Below, in pieces: positions 27,073 to 62,171 of a stretch of 64,000 bases of DNA (positions within the stretch are counted from its first letter, which is position 1; every line of letters starts with the position of its first letter). The notes below the pieces were generated by a model that was not told the DNA's origin, searched no databases, and saw only the letters and a program-made list of their open reading frames with translations. The translations under genes and the position numbers were made by a program. Source of the DNA: an uncultured delta proteobacterium (GTDB lineage: Bacteria > Desulfobacterota > Syntrophobacteria > Syntrophobacterales > Syntrophobacteraceae); NCBI GenBank assembly GCA_963808625.1, contig CAWEHK010000008.1, positions 206,752 to 270,751 on the forward strand, in the 5' to 3' direction.

Positions 27073-29676
27073 ATGCTTGACAGACTCAATCCCTTTCGAT
27101 GGTTCCGTTCCAGGAGCCAAAAGCCCTCAAAGGACCAGGCCTACGATGCTTTCCGCTTCAAATACGAACGCTTCAAGGAACTCCTGGACTCGAACTCGGA
27201 ATTGTCGAAAATTCTCGTGGATATGGAAGAGAGACTTCAAGGCCACCGGGTGTTCGGCATGAGTTATGTCCGGTCGCAATCGGCGCGGGCCGTTTTCCAT
27301 ACCATGCGCATGATCCAGAGCTTGAATGCCATCTCGCGCGACCGCTATCCGACGCTCCTGAAAGTGCTCGAAGACATCAACCTCCAGATCAAACGAGAAT
27401 TGGACAAACGCAAAGAGAGTCCGATCCAGGACTTGATTCTCCCCTACTCCGCAATCACCCGCGAGATGGTGGACTGGGTGGGCGGCAAAAGCGCCAACCT
27501 CGGCGAAGTGGCCAGCCGGGTCAAGTTGCCGATCCCGGAAGGGTTTGCCATCACTACCCACGCCTTCGATGTTTTCCTCAAGCAGAACGACCTCATCGAT
27601 GAGATCAACAAAGTAAAAATGGAGATCGACCCCAACATTCCGGAAACGATCACCCTGGCAAGCGAGGAAATCCAGCGGATCATTATCGGCGCATCCCTTC
27701 CCCAGGAGCTCGAAGGGGTGATGCTCGCCGCTTATGATCAGATGATCGAGCGCATTACCGAAACCGGCGCCACCGATTTTTCACCCCAGGTATCGTTGCG
27801 AAGCAGCGCCATTGGAGAAGACAGTGAGCTCTCCTTTGCCGGCCAGTACCTCTCCGTGCTCAACGTCCCCCGCGACCGGCTCACCAGGACTTACAAGTTT
27901 GTGGTGGCGAGCCTCTTTACGCCTCGCGCCATTTCCTATCGACTGAGCAAGGGCATCCCCCACGAAAGTGCGGCCATGAGCGTCGCCTGCCTCCAGATGA
28001 TCGACTCGGTTGCCAGCGGCGTTGCCTACTCGCACCATCCTTTCAATCTCCTCGAGGAAAACATCATCATCAACGCCGTGTGGGGACTCGGACCTTATGC
28101 TGTCGACGGCGTCATCACGCCGGATACCTACACTGTCGCTAAGGATCGAGCACCTGACGATTCTCGAGACGAAGATTTCCCACAAAGCTGTCCAACTGGT
28201 GAGCCGCCCTGAGGGCGGTTTGGTGGAAATCCCGGTGCCCGAAGGTGACCAGGAGCGGCCGTGCCTCTCTGAGGAGCAGATCAAGGGCCTCGCCGATTAC
28301 TCGCTGAGACTCGAGAGGCACTACGGGCATCCCCAGGACACCGAATGGGCGCTCGACAAGCATGGCCGGATCATCATCCTCCAGACCCGGCCCCTGATTC
28401 TCCAGTCCCAGAACGAAGGCGGCGCGGGTCGAACCACGCCGGTGCTGCCCGGCTACCCTTTGCTTTTTGAAGGCGGCGCCGTCGCGTCGCCCGGAGTCGG
28501 GTTCGGACCGGCTTTTGTCGTCAATACCGACGACGATCTCATGGCATTTCCTGACGGTGCGGTGCTCGTCTCGAAGCACTCCTCCCCCAAGTTTGTGGTG
28601 GCCATGCCAAAAGCCCAGGCCATTCTTACCGATTCCGGCAGCGTCAGCGGCCACATGGCCTCACTCACCCGCGAATTTTCCGTCCCCACCATCGTCGGGA
28701 CGAAAGATTTGACCTCAAACCTTGCCAATGGTCTCGGAGATCACGGTGGATGCCTATTCCGGGAGAGTGTACGCGGGCAAGGTGCCCGAGTTGCTGAAGC
28801 TGCAGGTAGCGAGGCAAACCGGGATCAGCAGAGACACCCCGGTCTACCAGACCCTCAAGCATATCGGCGAACTCTCCATCCCCCTTCGGCTCCTTGATCC
28901 GAAGTCGCCCGATTTTACGCCGGAAAACTGCCGATCCCTTCACGACATCATGCGGCTGGTCCACGAATTCTCCTACCGTCACATGTTTCAACTGAGCGAC
29001 CAGGTTTCGGACGTGAGCGGCTGCAGTGTGAATCTGGTTGCCCCCATTCCCCTCGATCTCTGCATCATCGACCTGGGAGGAGGTCTCGCGGACACTCGAG
29101 AAGGGGTCAGAAAGGTCCCGGTGGACCAGGTCGTGTCCGTTCCTTTCAAGGCCCTCCTCAAAGGCATGCTGCATGAAGGCGTTCGTCATACGCAGCCGCG
29201 ACCGGTCGAGACTCAAAGGCTTCTTTTCCGTGATGAGCGAACAGATGCTCTCACCCGGCTATGGTTCGGAACGGTTCGGGGACCGGAGCTACGCCATCGT
29301 CTCCGACAAGTACCTCAACTTCAGCTCCCGCGTCGGCTACCACTACGCCATTCTCGACGCCTACTGCGGCCAGACTATTAACAACAATTACATCACCTTC
29401 TCGTTCAAGGGAGGAGCTGCCGACGATGTCCGCAGGAACCGGCGCGTCCGCTCCATCGGCCGCATTCTCGAGGAACTCGGCTTTGTCGTGGACGTCACCG
29501 GCGATCGGGTCAGTGCGCGCTTTCAGCGCTACGAATGCCCGGAAATTCAAGAGCGACTGGACACCATGGGCCGCCTGCTGCAATTCACCCGCCAGATGGA
29601 TATGCTCATGCGCAGCGAAGCAGCTGTGGAGACGATTGCCAAGGCTTTTCTGGAGGGAAATTATAGCTTGGAGTGA
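27073..29676 (+). CDS. Second PEP-synthase-like dikinase (about three frameshifts)
   Basis: Four overlapping ORFs carry GGKSANL, RSSAIGED, QDTEWA, SGHMASLTRE and SRVGYHY...RQMDM, collinear with 19510..22179. Confidence 0.82.
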
Positions 29677-29745
29677 TGAGTGATGAGTGATGGGTGGCGA
29701 GTGAGGAGTGATGAGTGATGAGTGGAGGGGAGAGTGAGGAGAGAG
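29672..29745 (+). repeat. Heptamer array (GTGATGA/GTGAGGA)n
   Basis: Begins in the stop codon of the second dikinase gene. Confidence 0.8.
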
Positions 29746-29992
29746 GAGCAAGGGGTCGGGAGGGGGAATGGATGCTGCGGGTGCTCTGATATTGCTTTCT
29801 TCCCCGAGTCAGGACTCCCCGTGACCCGAAGAATCAGAGAAAATGTTGAGAACCAACGATCGTCATTCCCGCAGGCTCCAGTCGGGAATCCAGAGAGATG
29901 GTCTGGATACACGCTTTCACCAGTTTGAAAGAGTGAGATTATATGGACCGCTAACCACCGTTTTCATAAGTGCCAAGCAAAGGAGACCCATT

Positions 29993-30619
29993 ATGAAACG
30001 ACTTCTGGTTGTGCTGCTTTTGCTTTTCTGGGCAACGACGCCGGCCTGGGCAGACTATGAATCGGCAATGGCCGCCTACAAACAGGCCGACTATGCAACC
30101 GCCCTCAAGGAATTAAAGCCGCTGGCGGAGCAGGGCGACGCCAAGGCTCAAAACACCCTCGGCTGGATGTATCGGGAGGGACAGGGAGTAACCAAGGATT
30201 ACAACGAAGCCATAAAGTGGTTTGAAAAAGCGGCTGCCCAAGGCTTTGCCAAGGCCTTGAACAACCTCGGCATCATGTATGAAAAAGGGATTGGCGTCAA
30301 ACCTGACGGGGCAGAAGCCATGAAGTGGTATCAAAAGGCCGCCGATCAGGGGGATGCCTGGGGCCAAAACAATCTTGGCATGCTGTACCTGGGGGACAAG
30401 GGCATTCCTCAGAACCAACTCGAGGCCGTAAAATGGTTCCGCAGGGCGGCGGATCAGGGCCTCGCCAAATCACAGTTCCAGCTCGGATTGATGTACGAGC
30501 AGGGGCTTGGGGTGCAGCAGGACAAGGAAGAGGCCGCAAAATGGTATCAGAAAGCGGCAGATCAAGGCTTCGAAGAGGCAAAGGCAAAGCTCGACGCTGG
30601 AAAAACCAAGGCCCAATAA
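29993..30619 (+). CDS. Secreted Sel1-like repeat protein
   Basis: AGGAG RBS, signal peptide, four AQNxLGxMYxxGxGV/AxKWYxKAAxQG repeats. Confidence 0.9.
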   Translation: MKRLLVVLLLLFWATTPAWADYESAMAAYKQADYATALKELKPLAEQGDAKAQNTLGWMYREGQGVTKDYNEAIKWFEKAAAQGFAKALNNLGIMYEKGIGVKPDGAEAMKWYQKAADQGDAWGQNNLGMLYLGDKGIPQNQLEAVKWFRRAADQGLAKSQFQLGLMYEQGLGVQQDKEEAAKWYQKAADQGFEEAKAKLDAGKTKAQ

Positions 30620-44779: not shown

Positions 44780-44805
44780 CCGTGATTCCAACAAGGGAGG
44801 CAGAG

Positions 44806-46227
44806 ATGTCGGGAAGAATCCTCATCATTGATGATGAAAAGGACATGCTGGTCCTTTTGGAACGGATCTTGTCGGGGGCTCTTGCCGTCGAGATCACACG
44901 CACCGATGATCCCATGGAAGTGCCGGGATTGTTAAAGAAAAACAACTTCGAGGTGGTCATCACCGACCTCAAGATGCCGCAGCGAAACGGCATCCAGATT
45001 CTCGAAATGGTCAAGGAGAAAGACGAGACCACGGCCGTGATCATCATGACCGCCTTCGGCACTATCGAATCGGCCATCGAAGCCACGCGCAAAGGGGCAT
45101 ACGACTATATCACCAAGCCTTTTCGGAAGGAAAGAATCCTGCACGTGGTGGAAAAAGCCATCAACTGGCAGCGGCTCCAGAAGGAAAACGTCTATCTCCG
45201 GGAAAAGCTGGGAGGAAAGCCGCAGTTTCCGGCCCTCCTTGGAGGCAGCGCCGCCATGGAGCGTTTGCACGCCCAGATCGACCGCATCGCCGGGACTTCG
45301 GCGACCGTGCTCATCACCGGTGAAAGCGGGACCGGTAAGGAATTGGTGGCGCGCGCCGTGCACATCCACAGCCAGAGAAAGACGAAACCGTTTATCCCCA
45401 TTGACTGCAGCACCATTCCCGAATCACTTATTGAAAGCGAGCTTTTCGGTCATGTGAAGGGAGCGTTTACCGGTGCCATTCGGGACAAGAAGGGACTGGT
45501 CGAGGAAGCCAACAGCGGGACGCTTTTCCTGGATGAGATCGGTGACCTGAGCGTGACCATGCAGGTCAAACTCCTGCGCGTGCTCCAGGAAGGGGAATAC
45601 AAGGTGGTGGGTGCGAACACCATGCGGAAGGTGGATATCCGCTTTATCGCCGCCACCAATCGGAATTTGCAGGAGCAAATCAAAAACGGAGAATTTCGTG
45701 AAGACCTCTTCTACCGCCTGAACGTCATCAACATTCATCTTCCCCCTCTGCGGCGAGAGGATGGAAGACATCCCCGTGCTGACCAGCCCATTTCATCGAA
45801 AAATACAGCGTCATTCACGGCAAGAAGGTGAAAGGAATCTGCCGGGAAGCCCTTGATCATTTGCTGTCGCGGGACTGGCCGGGCAATATCCGGGAATTGG
45901 AAAATGTCATCGAACGGGGCGTGATCATGGCCACCGGCGATATCTTGCTTGAGGAAGATCTCCTGGCCACGGACGCGCCGGGTTCTGCCGGAGCCGCCCC
46001 CGCTCATCTCGCCGATGATATCTTCGCCATGCCCTTCAAGGAGGCCAAAGACCGACTGATCGAGGAATTCCAGATGCCAATACATCGCCCGAGCCCTGGC
46101 GCGCCACGGTGGCAATGTCTCGCAGGCCGCCCGCGACTCCGGCGTCAAGCGCCAATATCTCCACCGCCTCATGCGCGACACCCACCTCGAGTCAAAGGCC
46201 TTCAGGAAGCCTGAGTCATCAGAGTAG
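44806..46227 (+). CDS. Sigma-54-dependent response regulator, NtrC family (frameshifts near 45755, 45790 and 46078)
   Basis: Receiver, [31 protein letters not shown]-terminal [27 protein letters not shown] at 46225-46227. Confidence 0.9.
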
Positions 46228-46405
46228 TTGCGCTCTCCTCAAAGCCATACTTGCTGAATCTAAGGGTCCGGCAATTCTCAGTTACCGCTCTGGCGGTGTT
46301 TTTGGGCACCCCGTCCTGCGCCTGAACGGGCAGTCAGTCCGGCTTTGAGAACTTCGAAGCCACGACCGATCCTTTCACTGTTGGTTACCGCCATCCAAAT
46401 CTCCC

Positions 46406-46819
46406 CTATTCGCTTCCCAGAAGCTTCTTCATCTCGGCCACAAAGGCCATGGCCTGGTCGAGGATGGCCCTCACCTCATCAGATTCAAACTGCGCGATGG
46501 GTTGATAACCGGCCCGCTGGCGGTGGTCGAAGATCCATTCATAAAACGGCCCCCACGAGACATCGATCCTTCCGGGCTTGATCAGATCTCGATGAAAACT
46601 TGCGCACACCTGGGAGTGTTTCTTCAAGGTCTTGCCTTCCTTCATGAAAAACGCTGAAACGACGTGGAAACACGCAAAGTAAATGTCTCGCAAAGCATTG
46701 GGCAGTCTCCCGGCTTCAAAGTTCACCTGTGCTGAGTCATGATCGTTTCGCGCCTTGTCGATCCAGTGACTCACAAGAACCGTGCTGTAGTCTTTCTCCT
46801 GCCGCCCCTTCTCTGTCAT
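46406..46819 (-). CDS. HEPN domain protein
   Basis: IYFACFH, KKHSQV, RQRAGY; coupled to the upstream nucleotidyltransferase. Confidence 0.8.
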   Translation of the reverse strand: MTEKGRQEKDYSTVLVSHWIDKARNDHDSAQVNFEAGRLPNALRDIYFACFHVVSAFFMKEGKTLKKHSQVCASFHRDLIKPGRIDVSWGPFYEWIFDHRQRAGYQPIAQFESDEVRAILDQAMAFVAEMKKLLGSE

Positions 46820-47163
46820 GCTGCCAGTAACCCATCCCGCATGATTTCCCGATAAATTGGCAATGCGGTGAAAATACCGCCTGACCATTCCTCCATCGTG
46901 ACGATCAGAATGCTTATGATCGCGTCGTGACTCATTTCGATTTCAAACAGCGCGTCGATGATGGCTTTTCGTTCTCGCCACTAAATGGAACGTGAAGAGA
47001 TGAGAAGAAGATCGATATCGGAGTCCTCATCCGAATCCCCCCGGGCTTTGGACCCGTAAACGATGACCTTTTCAACGGGAAATCGCTCCCTGAGCATTTC
47101 AACGGCTGCATTGACGGCTCGGAGGTCGCGTTCAGCAAGTGGCACCTCATTGAGAGTTCTCAT
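46816..47163 (-). CDS. Minimal nucleotidyltransferase (MNT) (frameshifted)
   Basis: YGSKARGDSDEDSDIDLL (GS-x10-DxD); ATGA overlap with the HEPN gene. Confidence 0.82.
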
Positions 47164-47690: not shown

Positions 47691-50600
47691 TCAGGGAAGG
47701 CGAGCTGGAACTCTTCTGAAGCGCCGAGGCACGGGAAGATCCGGGCATTGTTTTTCGTAGGGAAGATCGGGGATATACCGCCGCCACTCGTTTTCGCTCA
47801 AATTACACGTTAGCTTGGCGCAGACCAGTTCAAGCCAGGCATCCGGCCCGTCCCACAAGTGGAGCGTCTTATCCCGACTCCCTGAGACGATGCTCTTGCC
47901 ATCGGGGCTGAAGGCTACACCATATACCCCTTCCTTATGATCGCTTAAGGGCTCACCGATAGGTTGACCGGTTTGAGCGTCCCACAGCCGCAGCGTCCTG
48001 TCCGCACTTCCCGAGACGATGTACCGGCCATCCGAGCTGAAGGCTACGCTGAGTACCTCGTTGTCATGGCAGCACAAGGACTCTGTGATGGGCTTGGCAC
48101 TTGGGCTGAAGGCCGGGCTATACTCCATTCGCCAATGACCGCGCGGGCGTGGCATGTCGTCGTCCGTTGAAATTTTGGGAATATGGTAGGGGGACACAAA
48201 GCGCCCATGATCGCGCAGGATCTCGCTGACATGCCACAGCCGCACCGACTTGTCCCAACTTCCGGAGACGATGCGTTGGCCATCAGGGCTGAAGGCTACG
48301 CTATTTACTCCGCCGTCGTGGCCGCGCAGGGGCTCACCGACAGGTTGACCGGTTTGAGCGTCCCACAGCCGTAACGTCTGGTCCCCACTTCCGGAGACGA
48401 TGCGTTGGCCATCAGGGCTGAAGGCTACGCTATTTACTCCGCCGTCGTGGCCGCGCAGGGGCTCACCGACAGGTTGACCGGTTTGAGCGTCCCACAGCCG
48501 TAACGTCTGGTCCCCACTTCCGGAGACGATGCGTTGGCCATCAGGGCTGAAGGCTACGCTAAACACCACCCCCTCATGGCCGCGCAGGGGCTCACCGATA
48601 AGTCGACCGGTTATAGCATCCCACAGACGCACCGTCTGGTCCCCACCTCCAGAGACAATGCGTTGGCCATCAGGGCTGAAGGCTACGCTAAACACCACCC
48701 CCTCATGGCCGCGCAGGGGATCGCCAAGGGGCTGACCCGTTTGAGCATCCCACAGCCGCAATGTCTTGTCCCCACTTCCTGAGACGATGCGCTTGCCATC
48801 AGGGCTGAAGGCCACACCATTCACCTGGTCCTCATGACGGAACCGGGGATTACCGATGGGGTGGCCGCTTTGAACATCCCAGAGCCGCACCGTCCAGTCA
48901 TAACTTCCTGAGACGATGCACTTGCCATCCGGGCTGAAGGCTACACCAGACACCGCCTTTTCATGGCCAGACAGGGGCTCGCCGATGGGTTGACCGCTTT
49001 GGGCATCCCACAGCCGCACCGTCCAGTCATAACTTCCTGACACGATGCGTTTCCCATCACGACTGAAGGCTACACCAGACACCACGTCTTGATGGCCAAG
49101 CAGGGGCTTGCCGACAGGCTGACCGCTTCGAGCATCCCAAAGCCGCACCGTAGTGTCCCAACTTCCAGAGACAATGCGCTTGCCATCAGGGCTAAAGGCT
49201 ACGCTAAGCACCGAGTTCTCATGGCCGCGCAGGGGCTTGCCGATGGGTTGACCGCTTCGAGCATCCCACATCTGCAACATCTTGTTCCGGCTTCCTGAAA
49301 CAATGCGCTTGCCATCAGGGCTGAACGCTACGCTGTAAACCTCGTCCTTATGGCCGTGCAGGGGTTTGCCGATAGGCTGACCACTTCGAGCGTCCCACAG
49401 CCGCAACGTCTGGTCCCGACTTCCTGAGACGATACGCTTCCCATCAGGGCTAAACGCCACGCTATACACCTCGGCCTCATGACCAACCAGGGGCTCGCCG
49501 ATCGGCTGGCCGCTTTCAACATCCCATAGACGTAACGTCTGGTCCCAACTTCCGGAGACGACGCGCTTGCCATCAGGGCTGAAGGCGACGCTATAAACCA
49601 CGCCCTTATGGCCTGTCAGAGGCTCACCGATGGGTTGCCCGCTTCGAGCATCCCATAGCCGCAACGTCGTATCCCAACTTCCTGAGACAATCCGCTTGCC
49701 GTCCGGGCTGAAGGCCACGCTATTCACCACGTTCTCATGGCAACCCAGAGGCCTGCCGACATCCCACAGGCGGACCGTACCGTCCCCACTTGCCGAGACG
49801 ACGCCTTTGCCATCAGGACTGAAGGCTACGCTATTCACCTCGCCCTCATGGCCGTGCAGAGGCTCAACAATCAGATTCCCACTCTGTGCATCCCACAGCC
49901 GCACCCTCTGGTCCCAACTTCCTGAGGCGATGCGCCTGCCATCCGGGCTGAAGGCCACGCTAAGCACCACCCCCTCATGACCACGCAGGGGCTCGCCGAG
50001 GGATTGGCCGCTTTCAGCATCCCACAGGCGGACCGTTCCGTCCCCACTTCCTGAGACGATGCGTTTGCCATCCGGGCTGAAGGCTACGCCACATACCTCA
50101 CCCTCACGCCCTCGCAGGGGCTCGCCGAGGGGCTGGCCGCTTTCAGCATCCCACAGCCGAATCGTCTGGTCCCAACTTCCGGAGACAACGCGCTTGCCAT
50201 CAGGGCTGAAGGCTACGCTAGCTACCCTGTGTTCATGGCCGCGCAGGGGCTCGCCAAGAGGCTGACCCGTTTGAGCATCCCACAGCCGCAATGTCTTGTC
50301 CCAACTCCCTGAGACGATGTGCTTGCCATCAGGGCTGAAGGCTACGCTAGCTACCACATCTTCATGGCCACGCAGCGGCTCGCCAAGGGGCTGACCCGTT
50401 TGAGCATCCCATAGCCGTAACGTCATATCCCAACTCCCTGAGACGATGCGCTTGCCATCAGGGCTGAAGGCTACGCTAGCTACCCCGGCTTCATGACCGT
50501 GCAGGGGCTCGCCGAGGGGCTGGCCGCTTTGAGCATCCAACAGCCGAATCGTCTTGTCCCCACTCCCTGAGACGATACGCTTGCCATCAGGGCTGAAAGC

Positions 50601-52265
50601 TATGCTGTACACAGGACTCCGCATATCGGCGATCCAAAACATTCCTGAGGTCAATCGAAGACCATACTGCAGTGCGATCAACGTCTCAAGACCGGGTTTT
50701 AGCCGATAAGCTGCAGCGGCCAACTGGAGCCCCAGTTGGTCCGTGCCGGCATGGGTGCCATTGAGGATATCACGGCTTTCGATCGACAGCTTCCATGGGG
50801 AGGTCGCACGCAAGGTGGCCGCCAGCCGCTGCTTTGTCTGGGTGGCGTCATACCACAGCCACAAGCATGTTCCGGCTATCGCCAGCGCGACAAGGACTAC
50901 CACGCCGGCCAAGGTGAGTTGAAGACGTCGGAGTTTGTCTTTTTGCCTCTCGATCTCCTGTCTTTTTCGCTCACGCTCGCGGTCGCGGAAGTCCCGCACC
51001 ACACCAGTGAGGAGATCGTGAATGAGCTCAATGCGGTCCGTCCCCATATGGGGTTCGACGCGAAGCAACCGGCATTTGACCAGCCCCTCGAGTTCTTGTT
51101 CGGTGACAATTCCTTGGCTGAGGGCATCTTCCTTGGGATAGGGATTGCGGAAGCCACCCTCGGTGATGAGCTCGTCTTCAATGAACCGGCACGCGCGCTC
51201 CGGCAGGCCATCCACGCAGCCTTCATAGAACTCGGCAATAATGGCGCGCCCCGTGCCATGCAGCAGTTCCCGGTCGATACGGAGTTTCCTGGGAGGTCCC
51301 TTGCGGCGTTCATTGAGCCCGGTGCAGACGAGGCTGAGGAGCGCCGGCTCGATAACGAGATTTTCCAGTGGTGCAGCCTCCAGCGGCTTCACAGTGGATG
51401 CCGCGGTACCGCCAGAACCTGCAGCTTCCCCGGTCTTTTCCAACTCCCAACGGGCGGCAGCAACAAACCTCACGATTTCCCGCGAGATCGCTTTATCTAC
51501 AAGCGGGCGCCCGGTCTTGAACACGGCGTCCATGGCCTGGTTTCCATCCATCGGCAACAGGCGAAAGCGATTGCGCGTCGGCGATAGGCTTTCCAGGCGC
51601 CAGCCTTCCACCTCGGGAAGGTAATCCTCCCGGAAGCTCACCAGCACCCTGTAGCGGTGGCTCTGGAAATTAACAACTGGTCGTGGCCTTCGGTCTCCTC
51701 CAGTCGTTTGGCGAGGGGGCCTGGAATGCGGTTTCCGATCAAGTCGGCCAGGTCTTCGTGAAGCTGCCGCACGGCCCCGGCATTCTCTACCCCCAGCGTG
51801 AACACCTCTTCGAACTGGTCGAAGATGAAAACGGGTGTGAGGAGGTGGTTTTGGCGGCTCCACAATTCCAGTTCAGCCTGGTGCAGGTATTCCCAGAGGG
51901 TTCCCGCGGGGACGAAGGGAAGATGGTCGACGCCCTGGGCATGCAAGCTCCTTCTGGAAGGCATGCAACGCCTGCTCCATGAGCGGAGCGGTGGAGTCGC
52001 GAGGATCGAGGCGGACGTAGACGGGAAGATACTGTTCCTCTCGAAGGCGCGGGAACAACCCGGCCTGAAGGAGCGAGGTCTTGCCAAGCCCGGACCTGCC
52101 GTAGAGGACCGTGAGAGGGGCGTCGCGCACGAGACGGAGAAGAGCCGCCGTCTCCTCATCGCGCCCGTTGAAGAAGTCCTGGCCGCGCTCATCGAATTCG
52201 TGGAGGCCGGGCCACGGGTTTTCGGCATCAAGGATCACGCCACTCTGCACCTGGTATTCCGTCAT
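47691..52265 (-). CDS. STAND (nSTAND1-like) ATPase - TM helix - 21 WD40 repeats (two frameshifts near 51945 and 51665)
   Basis: NPWPGL...FNGRDEE, Walker A GRSGLGKTS, Walker B FIFDQFEE, SFREDY, ELIHD, TM LAGVVVLVALAIAGTCLWLW, and 21 VAFSPDG..IVSGS.D.T.RLWD units. Confidence 0.88.
47850..50615 (-). repeat. Highly similar 129-bp WD40 tandem repeats
   Basis: 43-aa period; the units around 48260-48520 are identical at DNA level. Confidence 0.93.
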
Positions 52266-53700
52266 GACGACCTCCGTCGCCGCAAGTCCCGAAGTGCGAC
52301 CATGATGGTCTGACGCAGCTGCTCGCTCATGCGGCCCCCAGGAGCGTGGCCAAACTGAAATTCCCGGAACTTGTCGGGCATTAGCAGATACCGGGTGGCA
52401 TTGCCGTCGAATTCAGAGTCCACGACCACCGGGAAGATAAACTTGCGGCCCTGGATCATTTTGGAACGTTCCGCAGCTTCGTGCCACTCTTTCCGGAAAT
52501 AGCCCTCCGTGCGCACTTCCGTGCTGGCAGAGATCAAAGGGAGAAACAGGGCACAGCGCTTGATCGCCCCCATGATGGCTCGTTCCCATTCGTCACCGGG
52601 CTTCAACATGTTCTTGTCGAACCAGATGATGCCCGCCCCGATCTCTTCGAGTTCGGCACACAAGGTTCGGGCGGCGGGAAGATCGGTTCGCGAGTAGCTG
52701 ATGAAGATGTCACCGGCGCCGGGAGTCTGCTCGGGTTCGAGGCGCGGCGGCATGGCTTCTGCAACTTCGGGATGGCGCTCATGCCATCGATGGGTGAGCT
52801 CGCCGATAAACGTCCCGGCGTCGCCCGGGTAGACCTGCGTGTTCTGGCTAAAGCGTTCGAGAAACAGGGTCAGGCTGTGGTTCTGGGCCACTTCATTGCC
52901 AACCAGGAATTCCTTCTTGGCGCGACCCCCCAAGAGCCGCTCCTTGTCCTTGTTGGAGAGCCGAATGAAGAAACGGTTCAGCCAGTCCGCAAAAGGGCAC
53001 CCGATGATGAGCAGGTTTCTGCTGCGCACTTCCGAGACCATGCGATCCGGCAGGTTCCCGCCCCCTGCATGGAGGTTGTAGAGGAACTCAAGGGTGTCTT
53101 CGTCGTGGATAGCGTAAAAGGGAGAGGCGGAAGCCCGACCGAAGAGGTAAAAAACGGCACTGTATAACGAGCTTCTAATTTCAGGGATATCCCGTGCCTG
53201 ATCGCCAGGAAGGTTGGGCGCATACACAATCTGCTCGGCGAAAGGCGCGCCGCCGCCTCGCTCAACATCCAGCGCCCTGACCAGGAGGTCGTCACAGGTG
53301 GTCGTGACAAAAAGATCCAAGGCGGAGATGCGGGCGAGATGGCGCAGAGCCTCAGGGATTGTGGGTTGGGAACCGAGGATGCCACGGAGCAATCGTTGAT
53401 GGGCCGGTAGAGGTCCTGGATGCGCCTGCCCCGCCGGGCAAGTGCACACACCGCGTCGTTCAGCTCCAGGTGAGGACGCAGTAACACCTCGTTGCTGATG
53501 ACCTCCCCCTCGACGACCCCGCTTGAAGCCTTAAGATCATATTTTGCCAGAAGCCGCTCGGCAAGGGCGCGGTAAAGGCGGACTTCCTGCCCCTGCTCCT
53601 GGATCGTGAGCAGCTCCGGGCCCAGGACCGGAATAACGCGCCGCTCCTCAATGTGGGCGAGCAGGTCATCCCAGAAATCATTGATGTCCGCAGCATTCAT
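52262..53700 (-). CDS. SIR2-like domain plus C-terminal TIR domain protein (frameshift near 53392)
   Basis: VIPVLGPEL, FVTTTCD, FYLFG, LLIIGC (SIR2-like); IFISYSRTD, WFD...PGDEW, FLPLIS, YFRKEW (TIR); ATGA overlap with the STAND gene. Confidence 0.85.
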
Positions 53701-53820
53701 TGGTGTACTCTCAGAGCGACGATTAAGGTGGCAATGTTGCCCAGGCAGCCCGCAGCATCGGGGTAAAACGGCGGCATCTCCAGCGCCTCATGCGTGACAC
53801 CAACATCGAGTCAAAGGCCT

Positions 53821-54255
53821 TCAGGAAACCTGATTCATCGGATTGGTTTCGGCTTTCCGCACTCTTTCATCCCTCGCCGCTTTGCGTTCGAAGGCCGATT
53901 CAATCTTCGCCAGCAGTTCATCGATGGGGCAGGGCTTGAGCAGGTATTCGTAGCCGCCGAGCCGCATGATCTCGACGGCCACATCCACCGAAGCGTGTCC
54001 GGTCAGGATAATGACTTCCACCTCCCGGTTGATCTTCTTCAACTCGGCCAGGGCCTCGATGCCGCTCATACCGGGCATTTTCACGTCGAGCAGGATGACG
54101 TCATAGGGCTGTTGCTGCAGCTCCTCGATGGCTTCCATGCCGCTCCCGACGGCGTTGGTGTCAAGGCCGTTAGCGGTCAGCAGTTTCTTGAGAGTGAGGC
54201 GGAATCGTTCTTCATCGTCGACGATTAAAACCTTTGCCTTGGGCAGCATTGTCAT
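53821..54255 (-). CDS. Single-domain response regulator
   Basis: IVDDEE, LDVKMPG, LTGHAS, LKP. Confidence 0.9.
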   Translation of the reverse strand: MTMLPKAKVLIVDDEERFRLTLKKLLTANGLDTNAVGSGMEAIEELQQQPYDVILLDVKMPGMSGIEALAELKKINREVEVIILTGHASVDVAVEIMRLGGYEYLLKPCPIDELLAKIESAFERKAARDERVRKAETNPMNQVS

Positions 54256-58752: not shown

Positions 58753-59682
58753 TCAGCCGATTGACTGCACAAAACCATTTTCCAGTCCAAGATCGAAAAC
58801 TGCGCGACACGCATACTCATATTCGCGTCGGCTTGTCTTGCGGTTGAGAGGCGGGGTATGGAGTGCTTCGTGCGCAGGAAAATACTGATGCATCAGGCTG
58901 ATCCAGACTTCCGGCCCGAATCTTTCCGCAAGAAAGGCAAGGTTCTGCGCGGTCCCGGCCAGGTCTTCGGGGAGCACAAGATGGCGGATCAGCATGCCCC
59001 GGTAGGCAATGCCTTCCGCGTCCACTTTGAGGGGGCCGACCTGGCGCCACATCTCCAGCAACGCCATGCGATTGCATTGCCACATAATCGGATCTCCGGG
59101 AACAGCGTTCTGCCACCGCAGGGTCAGCATACTTGATGTCCGGAAGATAGATGTCCACAATTCCTTCAAGCAACTCGCAGGATTTCAACCCGTTCGTACC
59201 CACTGGTGTTGTGCACGAGCGGCAGCCGGAACCCACGAGGGATGGCCCGGAGCAGGGCTTCCACCACCGCAGCCATCTGGTGCGTCGCCGTGACCAGGTT
59301 GAGGTTATGCGCCCCCTTCCTCTGGAGGTCCAGCATGCCCTCCGCCAATTCCTCTACGCTCAGATAACGGCCTACTCCCAGTTGGCTGATGGGATAATTC
59401 TGGCAGAAGATGCATTGGAGCGTGCAGCCGGAAAAAAAGATCGTTCCCGAACCACGAGTCCCGGAAATGGGCGGTTCTTCCCAGGGGTGGATGTTGACGG
59501 CGGCAACCTTTGGTCGTGCATCCACCCCGCACGCTCCCAGCTCGCCCGGCTTTCCGGTTAACGCCGCACCGGCGCGGGCAGAGAGTGCATGAGGCAAGCG
59601 CTTCACCCAGCTGGTTGGCCCTCTCGGTGAGGATGCCATGTTCGTATAGCGCGAGATAGCGTGGTTTCTCTTTTTTATCCAC
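58753..59682 (-). CDS. Radical SAM protein, PflX-like (several frameshifts)
   Basis: CTLCPRRCGV, HPWEEPPISG, GCTLQCIFCQN, DIYLPDIKY, RHLVLP across frames. Confidence 0.85.
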
Positions 59683-60149
59683 GAATGCACACGAAGAAAC
59701 ACGAAGAGATATTCAGGTTGCGGTACGCGTTATCTAACAAATCGTTTCCATTCCAGTTTTGTTGAGTTTCCAAAATTGATAAGTAAGCCGACACGAAGGC
59801 CGGTAGCTTTAAGATAATTCAACAACTGGGCATCTTCTCTCCCCGACAGATGTTCGAGGGCTTTCAATTCCACAACGATCTGTCGGTAGCATAAGAGATC
59901 CGAAACATATTCTTTCTTCAACTGTTGGCCTTTGTAGAGAATAATCAAAGGCATGTGGGCCTCAAAAGGAATCTGCCTTTTTCTGAGCTCGATTTCCATC
60001 GCTTCCTGATAAACCCCCTCCAAGAAACCAAAACCAAGCTCGTTGTGGACCTCCATTGCTGCCCCTACAACCGCATAGACTTCATCTTTGAGAATCAAAT
60101 CCATCAAATTCGGTTTTCCTTCGTGTCACTTCGTGTGAATTCGTGGATA
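59676..60149. repeat. 31-bp inverted repeats flanking the GxxExxY gene
   Basis: 59676-59706 reverse complement CTTCGTGTTTCTTCGTGTGCATTCGTGGATA versus 60119-60149 CTTCGTGTCACTTCGTGTGAATTCGTGGATA (28/31). Confidence 0.9.
59730..60107 (-). CDS. GxxExxY protein
   Basis: VHNELGFGFLEGVYQEA, DLL...IVVELKA, QLLNYLKATG...LINFG. Confidence 0.93.
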   Translation of the reverse strand: MMDLILKDEVYAVVGAAMEVHNELGFGFLEGVYQEAMEIELRKRQIPFEAHMPLIILYKGQQLKKEYVSDLLCYRQIVVELKALEHLSGREDAQLLNYLKATGLRVGLLINFGNSTKLEWKRFVR

Positions 60150-60152
60150 GAA

Positions 60153-62103
60153 TCAGCTCCATTTTTCACCATCCCAGACACCCTTGACCGTCCCTGATGC
60201 GGATACGTCATAGCCGCCGAGTGCGTTCACGGTATGGCGGCAGGAGGCGGAAACGATGATATCCAGGAGCAACCGGATTTTGGGATCGTCCCAACTGGCT
60301 TCGGGAATCACCAGGTCGTAGCGTTCTTCCGCAATGGGAATGAAGTCCAGATGCAGTGCCCTGGCGGAAGCATAAATTGCCATCCCGGCATCCGCCCGGC
60401 CACTGAGCACGTTCACGGCCACCGCCATGTGGGTGAATTCCTCCTGGTCGTAACCACGAATCCCGTCGCGTGAGAGCCCCGACTGCTGCAGGCAATAGTC
60501 CAGAAGGATGCGCGTACCGGCCCCGGCCTGGCGATTGATGAAAGTCACCTCGGGTCTGAGCAGGTCTTCAATTCCCCGGATGTTCTTGGGGTTTCCGGGG
60601 CGAATGAGCAGACCCTGCTGGCGCATTGCCAGCTGCACCAGGCGCAACGGCGTGCCTTTGAGATAGCGCTCGATGTAAGAGAAATTGTACTCACCGCTAT
60701 CCACATCCAGGAGATGGGAACCGGCCAGGTGAGTCTGTCCCCGGCGAATGGCCATGAGCCCGCCCAGGCTGCCGACATTGCTCGAGGAAAGGTGGAGCCG
60801 GCTGTCCCTCCGCTTCAGTTCGTTGGCGAGCACATCAATGGCGTTATCATGGCTCCCGATCATGATGAGGGTATGGTCCAGCTGCTCCTCGGGCCGAAGC
60901 AGGCGCACGCGCACGGTCTCTTCCACCTCGTGGCCTTCCAGGTCCTGGGGAATCTGCAGGATGCCATCGGCGCGCGTGAGCGAGGTAATGACGCCGGCGC
61001 CGCGCTGGAGGGGCATGGCGATGAGGCGCCCCTGCACCCGCCCGAGGATGACCCGCACGAATTCCTCGAGTCCCAGCTTGGACGGCATCTTACGGCCCAG
61101 AAACGCTTCCACCTCGGGAAAGGCCGGACATGGCAAACCCTGCAGAGCGTAGAGAAGAGGCCGCACAAATTGTTCGAAGGCCATAATGGCTGAGACCGAA
61201 TAGCCGGGGACACCGACGACGGGTTTGCCTTTGATCACGCCAAGGATCGTCGGCTTTCCCGGCATCATGGTCACGCCATGCACCAACACCTCGCCCAGCT
61301 CGTCAACGATTGCCGAAGTATAATCTTCGGACCCGGCGGACGAACCGGCATTGACCAGCACCACGTCGGTCGGCGCTTCAACGGCCCGCCGCAGCGCCTC
61401 CTTGATGGTCTCATAGTCATCCGCGACGATTCCCTGCAGGAGGGCCTCGCCGCCGCATTCCTGAACCAGTCCCGAAAGAATTGCCCCGTTGAATTCGACA
61501 ATCTGCCCGGGAGCAGCTTCTGCCGCTTCGCCTGGCATCGAGGAGTTCCGTGCCGGTGGGTTGAATCCAAACACGGGGACGAGTATAGACCGGAACTTCC
61601 TGGACTCCGCCGGCGAGCAGCACCCCGACGTCGGCAGGCCGAAGCCGGTGGTGCTGAGGCAAGAGCAGTTCCCCGGCGACCATATCCTCCCCGACTTTGC
61701 GCACATGCTGCCAGGGGAATGCTGCCGCGCGAATCTCCACCTCATCCTCTGCCACCGGTTCCACATATTCGATCATGACCACGGCATCGGTTTCAGGCGG
61801 CAAGGGGTCGCCGGTGTCAACCGCATGGGCCGTCTTCCCAAGCACGAGACGCAGCGGGTGAACCTCGCTTGCACCAAAGGTGTCTCGAGCCTTCACCGCA
61901 ATGCCGTCCATTGCCGAACCGTGATAATGCGGCACGGAACTCCCGGCAATGATCGGTTGCGCCAGGACCCTGCCAAGAGTCGACACCGCCGGGATGCCCT
62001 CGATTGCACAGCGGCAGGCTGCGGTCTTTTCTGCCCAAAGCCCCCGAGCTTCCTCAAGCGTCTTCATCTTCAGATAGACATTTCTCTTCGGTTTCACTGA
62101 CAT
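60153..62103 (-). CDS. moeA: Molybdopterin biosynthesis protein MoeA fused to a periplasmic-binding-protein-like domain (frameshift near 61535)
   Basis: SAMDGIAV, VDTGDPLP, PTGTEL, GSSAGSED, PGKP, then GSHD, GSLGG, RQAGAGTR, THMAVA. Confidence 0.9.
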
Positions 62104-62171
62104 ACGTAATACCTCCGGGGTGTCCCCGCGGCGTTGGGGCCCGGGGCCCATCATTTAGAGGTCGTCCGGCT

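Follow-up and report, generated by a model that had tools for sequence, protein, structure and literature searches.

Avs proteins are cytoplasmic and carry their effectors fused N-terminal to a STAND ATPase, and the fungal NLRs HET-E and HET-D reside inside the cell and have a HET effector fused to a NACHT-type ATPase. Here we describe a bacterial gene pair laid out differently from both, found in a 64,000-nucleotide stretch of DNA from an uncultured delta proteobacterium of the Syntrophobacteraceae (GenBank assembly GCA_963808625.1, contig CAWEHK010000008.1, positions 206,752 to 270,751 of the forward strand; hereafter the window, whose own numbering is used throughout). Gene 1 encodes a SIR2-fold domain with altered motifs (pseudo-SIR2) followed by a TIR domain, and gene 2 encodes an nSTAND1 ATPase, a predicted transmembrane helix and 21 WD40 repeats (Table 1). 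By its sequence, the pair belongs to the nSTAND1 counter-invader conflict systems named by Kaur, Iyer, Burroughs and Aravind (eLife 2021; PMC8195603), is a member of neither Avs nor Thoeris, and would work like an NLR or Avs switch. We consider it moderately probable that the two genes form a conserved immune or conflict switch, in which a membrane-spanning receptor would hold its WD40 repeats outside while the pseudo-SIR2 docks a TIR domain that cleaves nicotinamide adenine dinucleotide (NAD).

PMC8195603 describes adaptor domains that link effector genes to partner STAND-FGS genes, and the accessible part of the source data of its Figure 2 contains the two-gene rows 'TIR+DrHyd -> nSTAND1+TM+BetaPropeller' and 'TIR -> nSTAND1+TM+BetaPropeller'; nSTAND1+TM is mentioned 461 times in these source data, in which 60 of several hundred places were inspected. 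Our pair resembles these systems in the nSTAND1 clade of its ATPase (PF20703), in having a variable C-terminal sensor on a constant core, and in the TIR-bearing effector gene directly upstream. Unlike the examples in the text of that paper, it has no EAD or bDLD serving as a homotypic adaptor in its two proteins; rows lacking EADs do occur in the same source data, so that an adaptor is not required for the clade. SIR2 is mentioned 8 times in file 1 of the paper, in no case as a SIR2+TIR gene before nSTAND1, and we found no discussion of a membrane-spanning nSTAND1 or of a dead SIR2 adaptor in its accessible parts; some of the rows labelled only 'TIR ->' could be the same family with its SIR2 fold unrecognised. 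A preliminary description of this locus, made from the letters alone, had held its split, membrane-spanning layout to be distinct from characterised Avs systems. The pair is indeed not Avs, but the claim was overstated, as both the nSTAND1 clade and the split TIR layout already stood in the accessible source data. What is likely new, judging from the sequence, is the proposed coupling through the pseudo-SIR2 and the probable sensing of the outside, and not the published gene layout.

Comparison with the other described systems sharpens these differences. Avs/AVAST systems (Avs5, for instance, with its SIR2-STAND architecture) have in common with our pair a STAND switch, a repeat sensor and an NAD-targeting effector; in the window, however, the effector is a separate gene, its SIR2 domain is without the catalytic residues and precedes the TIR domain, and a transmembrane helix lies between ATPase and sensor. 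No Avs model of PADLOC matched the window genes. Thoeris (ThsA, SIR2-SLOG; ThsB, TIR) also places SIR2 and TIR in one system, and the fold of our SIR2 domain is nearest to ThsA and KomC. The roles nevertheless look reversed, in that the window TIR keeps its Glu while the window SIR2 is without the Asn and His; a STAND receptor is present, and, unlike in Thoeris, neither gene gave a Pfam or PADLOC hit to a SLOG or Macro signal-binding domain. Active SIR2_2 NADases such as ThsA and DSR2 share the sirtuin-like fold with the window family but have TTNxD and KLHG where the window has TTTCD and YLFG, and the window TIR appears by alignment to share the conserved Glu of catalytic TIR NADases. The fungal HET-E and HET-D resemble our pair in joining a STAND ATPase to WD40 repeats that are very much alike and whose variable sites match ours in spacing (PMC12222747, in the part available). 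No description of a dead SIR2-TIR partner of a STAND protein was found in the literature searched, which was mostly without subscription journals.

Two genes coupled by an ATGA overlap had been proposed, the first with a Glu-retaining TIR domain and altered SIR2-like motifs, the second with intact Walker A and B motifs, one transmembrane helix and 21 WD40 repeats. Three-frame translation recovered both genes and every one of these features, with the ATG of gene 2 overlapping the TGA of gene 1. Pfam matched gene 1 to TIR_2 (E 3e-16) and to SIR2_2 (E 4e-4, under the cut-off of that model), and the first fragment of gene 2 to nSTAND1 (PF20703; E 1.4e-18, 68 bits against a cut-off of 27). No NCBIfam model matched gene 1; PADLOC matched only the TIR domain of an intact gene 1 homologue and nothing in two intact STAND parts, and a promoter and terminator scan gave signal no better than chance.

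Homologues of gene 1 number 499 at E ≤ 0.001, among them intact ones of 477–480 amino acids that are 71–79% identical to it. When sequences are clustered at 50% identity, a SIR2-only profile retrieves 736 clusters with E ≤ 1e-30; the number rises to 1455 at 1e-10. The titled genomes that carry gene 1 are mostly Acidobacteriota and Gemmatimonadota, with one Syntrophobacteraceae record. We examined 94 loci, of which 14 came from genomes and the other 80 were the best of 255 from metagenomes; several are near-duplicates, so that the counts are not independent. An nSTAND1 gene lies directly downstream of gene 1 in 81 of them. Eleven of the 13 loci lacking this partner reach the contig edge inside gene 1 or at most 42 bases from it; the other two have a truncated gene 1 with no partner within 7.9 kb (L014) and no partner in 503 bases (L091). 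The pairing assumed in the preliminary description is thus conserved. A 4-base overlap from an in-frame start is present in 74 of the 81 pairs, a count favoured by our script, which picked the start nearest that place. Intact two-gene copies exist (L006 and L054, for example). Four apparent fusions of gene 1 to STAND (P0122, P0124, P0126 and P0179) were rejected because of out-of-frame text at the join, and a further protein (P0199), real or a read-through, has STAND ahead of SIR2-TIR in one chain without a transmembrane helix.

The two genes are also inherited together. In trees of 36 pairs less than 90% alike in STAND, the STAND tree recovered 10 of the 12 well-supported effector splits, and the effector tree 10 of the 11 well-supported STAND splits, with no supported conflict, which shows joint inheritance rather than contact. 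Most partners carry WD40 repeats behind the transmembrane helix, and among 11 selected sensor pieces Pfam found FGE in one, TPR in three, TPR with FHA in one, astacin in one, PPC (below its cut-off) in one and no domain in four. The C-terminal sensor is swapped on a constant effector–ATPase scaffold.

We turned to structure for the SIR2-fold domain of gene 1, using a model from one homologue (L002; pLDDT, the predicted value of the local distance difference test, 78; predicted template-modelling score 0.81). The model matched KomC (Z 19.3, root-mean-square deviation 3.6, 257 aligned residues) and ThsA (Z 19.0, deviation 4.0, 262 aligned), and then Avs5 (Z 16.4) and FAM118B (Z 14.1), all well above unrelated folds. 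Motif columns were counted over the best 150 representatives. At the column of the catalytic Asn, 149 representatives show T in 121 cases, S in 11 and N in 5; at that of the catalytic His, all 150 show F, L or M and none His; and GAGxS has turned into GxE/DLL, position 33 being acidic in 121 of 146. Because ThsA N112A and H152A lose both NAD cleavage and NAD binding (PMC7272460, as far as available), and the same Asn and His matter in FAM118B (10.1101/2024.09.18.613514 and PMC12700824, in their accessible parts), the SIR2-fold domain is likely dead as a classical NADase across the family, which bears out the earlier suspicion of a degenerate SIR2.

The TIR domain presents the opposite picture. 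Of the 150 representatives, 124 have a TIR domain, and its Glu stands in all 122 that have that column; in alignment, the Glu of the window TIR falls opposite that of AbTir and of the SPARTA TIR, which we take to be the catalytic one. Twelve of the 26 representatives without a TIR domain were inspected; one of these is fused to a kinase (P0196), and the others seem to be truncated or frameshifted.

Several observations weigh against a dead SIR2 pocket. Two positions ahead of the usual His, 83 of 150 representatives have a His where the window has Tyr, and profile positions D134, E198, D199, E202, W237, R240 and R244 are conserved at 93–99%, so the pocket may still work. The mapping of the Asn and His columns rests on motif order together with a local hhalign to five canonical SIR2_2 proteins, which gave the expected motif register at a non-significant E of 0.073. 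Sequence searches of the PDB gave nothing meaningful with the SIR2-only profile and nothing with the STAND profile. Rather than being mainly a dock, the SIR2-fold domain could serve to sense a nucleotide or as a second lock, binding NAD, ADP-ribose or a TIR product uncleaved and thereby gating or amplifying the TIR, as the full SIR2 fold and the nearly invariant glycines and acidic residues around the pocket might suggest. We regard such a role as unlikely: the ThsA mutants that lack the equivalent residues are without NAD binding, the change of GAGxS to GxE/DLL, mostly with an acid at position 33, would likely disfavour phosphate binding, and a degenerate SIR2 also accompanies other effectors before nSTAND1 (as in L138, below).

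If the pseudo-SIR2 is instead a dock, gene 1 product should contact its STAND partner, and for this the evidence is a complex prediction. The intact L006 pair scored 0.50 against 0.00 for the best control, with at least 59% of contacts common among runs and a partner pLDDT of at least 75. The mark used was reached by 116 of 157 solved pairs and 2 of 215 mismatched pairs; at scores of 0.60 or under, however, it was reached by 18 solved pairs and by both mismatches. Counting against docking through the pseudo-SIR2, the prediction comes without an interface, and its score leaves the binding domain of gene 1 unspecified. The model thus hints weakly that gene 1 product binds STAND, and the adaptor role given to the SIR2 domain in the preliminary description gains slight support for contact and none for where that contact would lie.

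The preliminary description had also suggested that the helix places the propellers across the membrane from the ATPase. A helix with a Kyte–Doolittle hydropathy (KD) of at least 1.6 follows shortly after STAND in 44 of the 46 partners long enough, with more K/R before it than after it in 45 of 46 (means 7.4 versus 3.1), so the ATPase is predicted to be inside and the sensor outside, in agreement with that suggestion. In nearly all partners the hydrophobic helix is single, 19 residues long and preceded by basic residues on its N side. The window and 17 of 37 complete partners have a C-terminal Cys-pair motif, which would suit an oxidising compartment.

Two partners speak against outward sensing, one with an FHA domain after the helix (L063) and one without the helix (L051). 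FHA domains are normally cytoplasmic. The helix might accordingly be a mere tether or structural element with both ends in the cytoplasm, which would make the pair a split cytoplasmic Avs that senses phage proteins, and characterised STAND sensors do recognise phage proteins intracellularly (PMC12803255). We think this improbable given the N-side basic residues flanking a 19-residue hydrophobic helix in nearly all partners and the conserved terminal Cys pair. Dore et al. predicted that one STAND target has a lectin sensor in the periplasm (10.1101/2023.09.22.558884); PMC12803255 notes WD40 and FGE sensors, and the available main text is without a membrane-spanning STAND.

The repeats that would face outward have a mean pairwise identity of 68% and a spacing of mostly 43 residues. 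On a numbering offset chosen to fit, their variable, surface-type positions include 10, 11, 12, 14, 30 and 32, the very positions of the diversifying sites of the fungal HET-E and HET-D repeats (PMC12222747); this match of spacing is suggestive only. Weighing against it, positions 7 and 40 are as variable as these, and position 7 is the most variable of all and is no HET-E site. Homologues differ in repeat number, with up to 15 found by a profile of the window's repeats. The 'triple' propeller of the preliminary description therefore stands as to its 21 repeats, but 'triple' was arithmetic (21/7), and repeat number varies among homologues. Within the window array, an insertion of ~41 residues between repeats 19 and 20 (~48240-48100, spacing 84) breaks the series, and repeat 7 is 6 residues short. 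At the other end, partner proteins start ~12 residues ahead of the nSTAND1 NPWPGL motif, with no effector domain ahead of STAND, which supports the earlier claim that the receptor has no effector of its own.

In the mechanism that we favour, the product of gene 2 would span the inner membrane, and a foreign or damage-derived ligand would bind the variable face of the periplasmic repeats, upon which receptors would cluster and their cytoplasmic STAND domains, by analogy with other STAND proteins, would exchange nucleotide and oligomerise. The pseudo-SIR2 domain, which the complex model weakly suggests binds STAND, would bring the TIR domains together, and these, having kept their Glu, may then cleave NAD to cause cell arrest or death, or else make a signal.

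Relatives of the pair suggest how a sirtuin could have come to such a role. A second SIR2 gene in the same genome lies directly before an nSTAND1 gene (C53, ~28000-30500, + strand; many frame breaks) and has canonical-looking motifs (GAGAS, TNYD and MHG), with no TIR seen. Elsewhere, a single protein combines TIR, a region that we take to be CHAT-like and a degenerate SIR2, its gene overlapping an nSTAND1-TM-propeller gene (G404; L138:479-7244), and in another protein (P0125) a SAV_2336 N-terminal domain is joined to SIR2-TIR. A canonical-motif SIR2 before nSTAND1, together with degenerate SIR2s found with TIR, with TIR plus the CHAT-like region and with a kinase, outlines a possible path to a docking sirtuin, and on their sequences these architectures are consistent with a dead SIR2 reused as a dock, the active-to-dead direction being presumed. 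Tentatively, and with less confidence than in the switch itself, one may go further and see in the pair a Toll-like bacterial NLR, with periplasmic detection of invaders and an effector recruited by a sirtuin turned general docking domain.

Other arrangements were seen alongside these. The kinase fusion P0196 consists of kinase and pseudo-SIR2, P0155 has an inserted helical domain ahead of its TIR, and P0121 reads TIR-SIR2-TIR. The C53 nSTAND1 gene has a possible transmembrane helix, and the gene upstream of its SIR2 gene is presumably clostripain-like. Two further nSTAND1 paralogues of the same genome appear to be a fused TIR-nSTAND1-TM-WD40 gene that follows a CHAT-like gene and a further ATPase gene (C8:134114-141246, - strand) and an N-terminal domain fused to nSTAND1 with an FGE-like tail (C50:60812-63857, - strand); the labels other than nSTAND1 are our assumption.

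The pair was inserted as a block into a cluster of signalling genes. In four genomes of the same genus (G401, G405, G406 and G407) the two flanking genes meet directly, without an insert, and in the window they are separated by ~7.5 kb, which holds the gene pair and a nucleotidyltransferase-like/HEPN gene pair (the former label being one that we assume from a motif) between repeat copies of the junction. Through the imperfect direct repeat, two convergent regulator genes regain their overlapping 3' ends. Among the open reading frames (ORFs) of the insert, no integrase was noticed. G+C content is 60% in the two genes against 54–55% in the flanks. Gene 1 turned up in none of 400 other sampled genomes of the phylum and in one of five same-genus genomes, at a different site.

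We also searched 104 neighbouring ORFs in 18 loci, and 10 of the ORFs gave PADLOC hits at 1e-15. Two of these look like ABC-ATPase cross-matches; the other 8 are conflict-type hits (phospholipase, TIR, SIR2-type, E1 and cyclase domains), confined to 7 of the 18 loci, which tells against an immune role. Linkage to defence islands is modest, and we put it no higher because the hit rate has no background for comparison. Genes resembling phospholipase effectors lie near the pair in 3 of the 18 loci (L008:12745-13905, L018:11741-12928 and L054:4429-5601). The 94 neighbouring ORFs without a hit and the lack of a PADLOC model for the STAND part would suit a non-immune transmembrane relay, in which an envelope or contact cue leads the TIR to make a regulatory nucleotide or to act as a scaffold, without death; defence and non-defence STAND clades are, moreover, intermingled (PMC12803255, in its available part). 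The patchy presence of gene 1 makes such a relay rather doubtful, as do the insertion of the pair together with a HEPN gene, the swapping of sensors and the variability of the repeats, all of which fit conflict systems.

The copy in the window carries three single frame breaks, near 53391 in gene 1 and near 51945 and 51690 in gene 2, which we placed with the help of intact homologues. Taken with the in-frame stop in the neighbouring nucleotidyltransferase-like gene, these breaks could mark a decaying pseudogene pair. We think that very unlikely: the motifs are intact, the pieces of gene 1 are 71–83% identical to intact homologues, and in the same assembly both rpoB and rpoC are broken into five frame pieces apiece, gyrA being whole. 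Three breaks in 6 kb are within that error level, and they are likely assembly errors, as had been supposed. Three further window genes, which we take to encode a sigma-54 regulator (44782-46214), a radical-SAM-like protein (58753-59702) and a MoeA-like protein (60153-62154), likewise appear to be spread over more than one frame, which agrees with errors in the assembly.

Table 1. Features of the gene pair and of the insert that holds it, in window coordinates
Feature	Position	Strand	Basis or remark
Gene 1, pseudo-SIR2 (SIR2_2 fold) + TIR_2	52262..53700	-	~479 aa if read through
SIR2-fold domain of gene 1, motifs altered	52770..53700 (boundary approximate)	-	fold search, motif columns
SIR2-domain motif GPEL	53622-53611	-	translation
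SIR2-domain motif TTTCD	53305-53291	-	translation
SIR2-domain motif YLFG	53149-53138	-	translation
TIR domain of gene 1	52290..52711 (boundary approximate)	-	Pfam, alignment to known TIRs
TIR motif FISYS	52705-52691	-	translation
TIR motif YFRKEW, carrying Glu	52501-52484	-	translation
Gene 2, nSTAND1 ATPase + transmembrane helix + 21 WD40 repeats + C-terminal Cys-pair cap	47691..52265	-	~1525 aa if read through
Walker A GRSGLGKTS of gene 2	52100-52074	-	translation
Walker B IFDQFEE of gene 2	51826-51806	-	translation
Predicted single transmembrane helix of gene 2, after basic stretch	50918-50844	-	KD 2.5; N-in, C-out predicted
21 WD40 repeats of gene 2	47838..50630	-	regular expression 21; Pfam 21 stretches
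Nucleotidyltransferase-like gene (presumed; one in-frame stop) + HEPN gene, co-inserted	46406..47163	-	HEPN Pfam E 5e-12
Imperfect direct repeat, ~125 bp, left copy, 3' end of sigma-54 regulator gene	46110..46235	+	
Same repeat, right copy, overlaps 3' end of response-regulator gene	53732..53857	+	

To our knowledge, characterised bacterial STAND receptors sense inside the cell. If the predicted topology is true, a large family would sense phage, predator or neighbour molecules before entry, coupled to the destruction of NAD. As the layout is already tabulated in the accessible source data of PMC8195603, the advance would be one of mechanism and not of the gene pair, and, if the docking role is true, a pseudo-sirtuin would join the list of immune adaptors.

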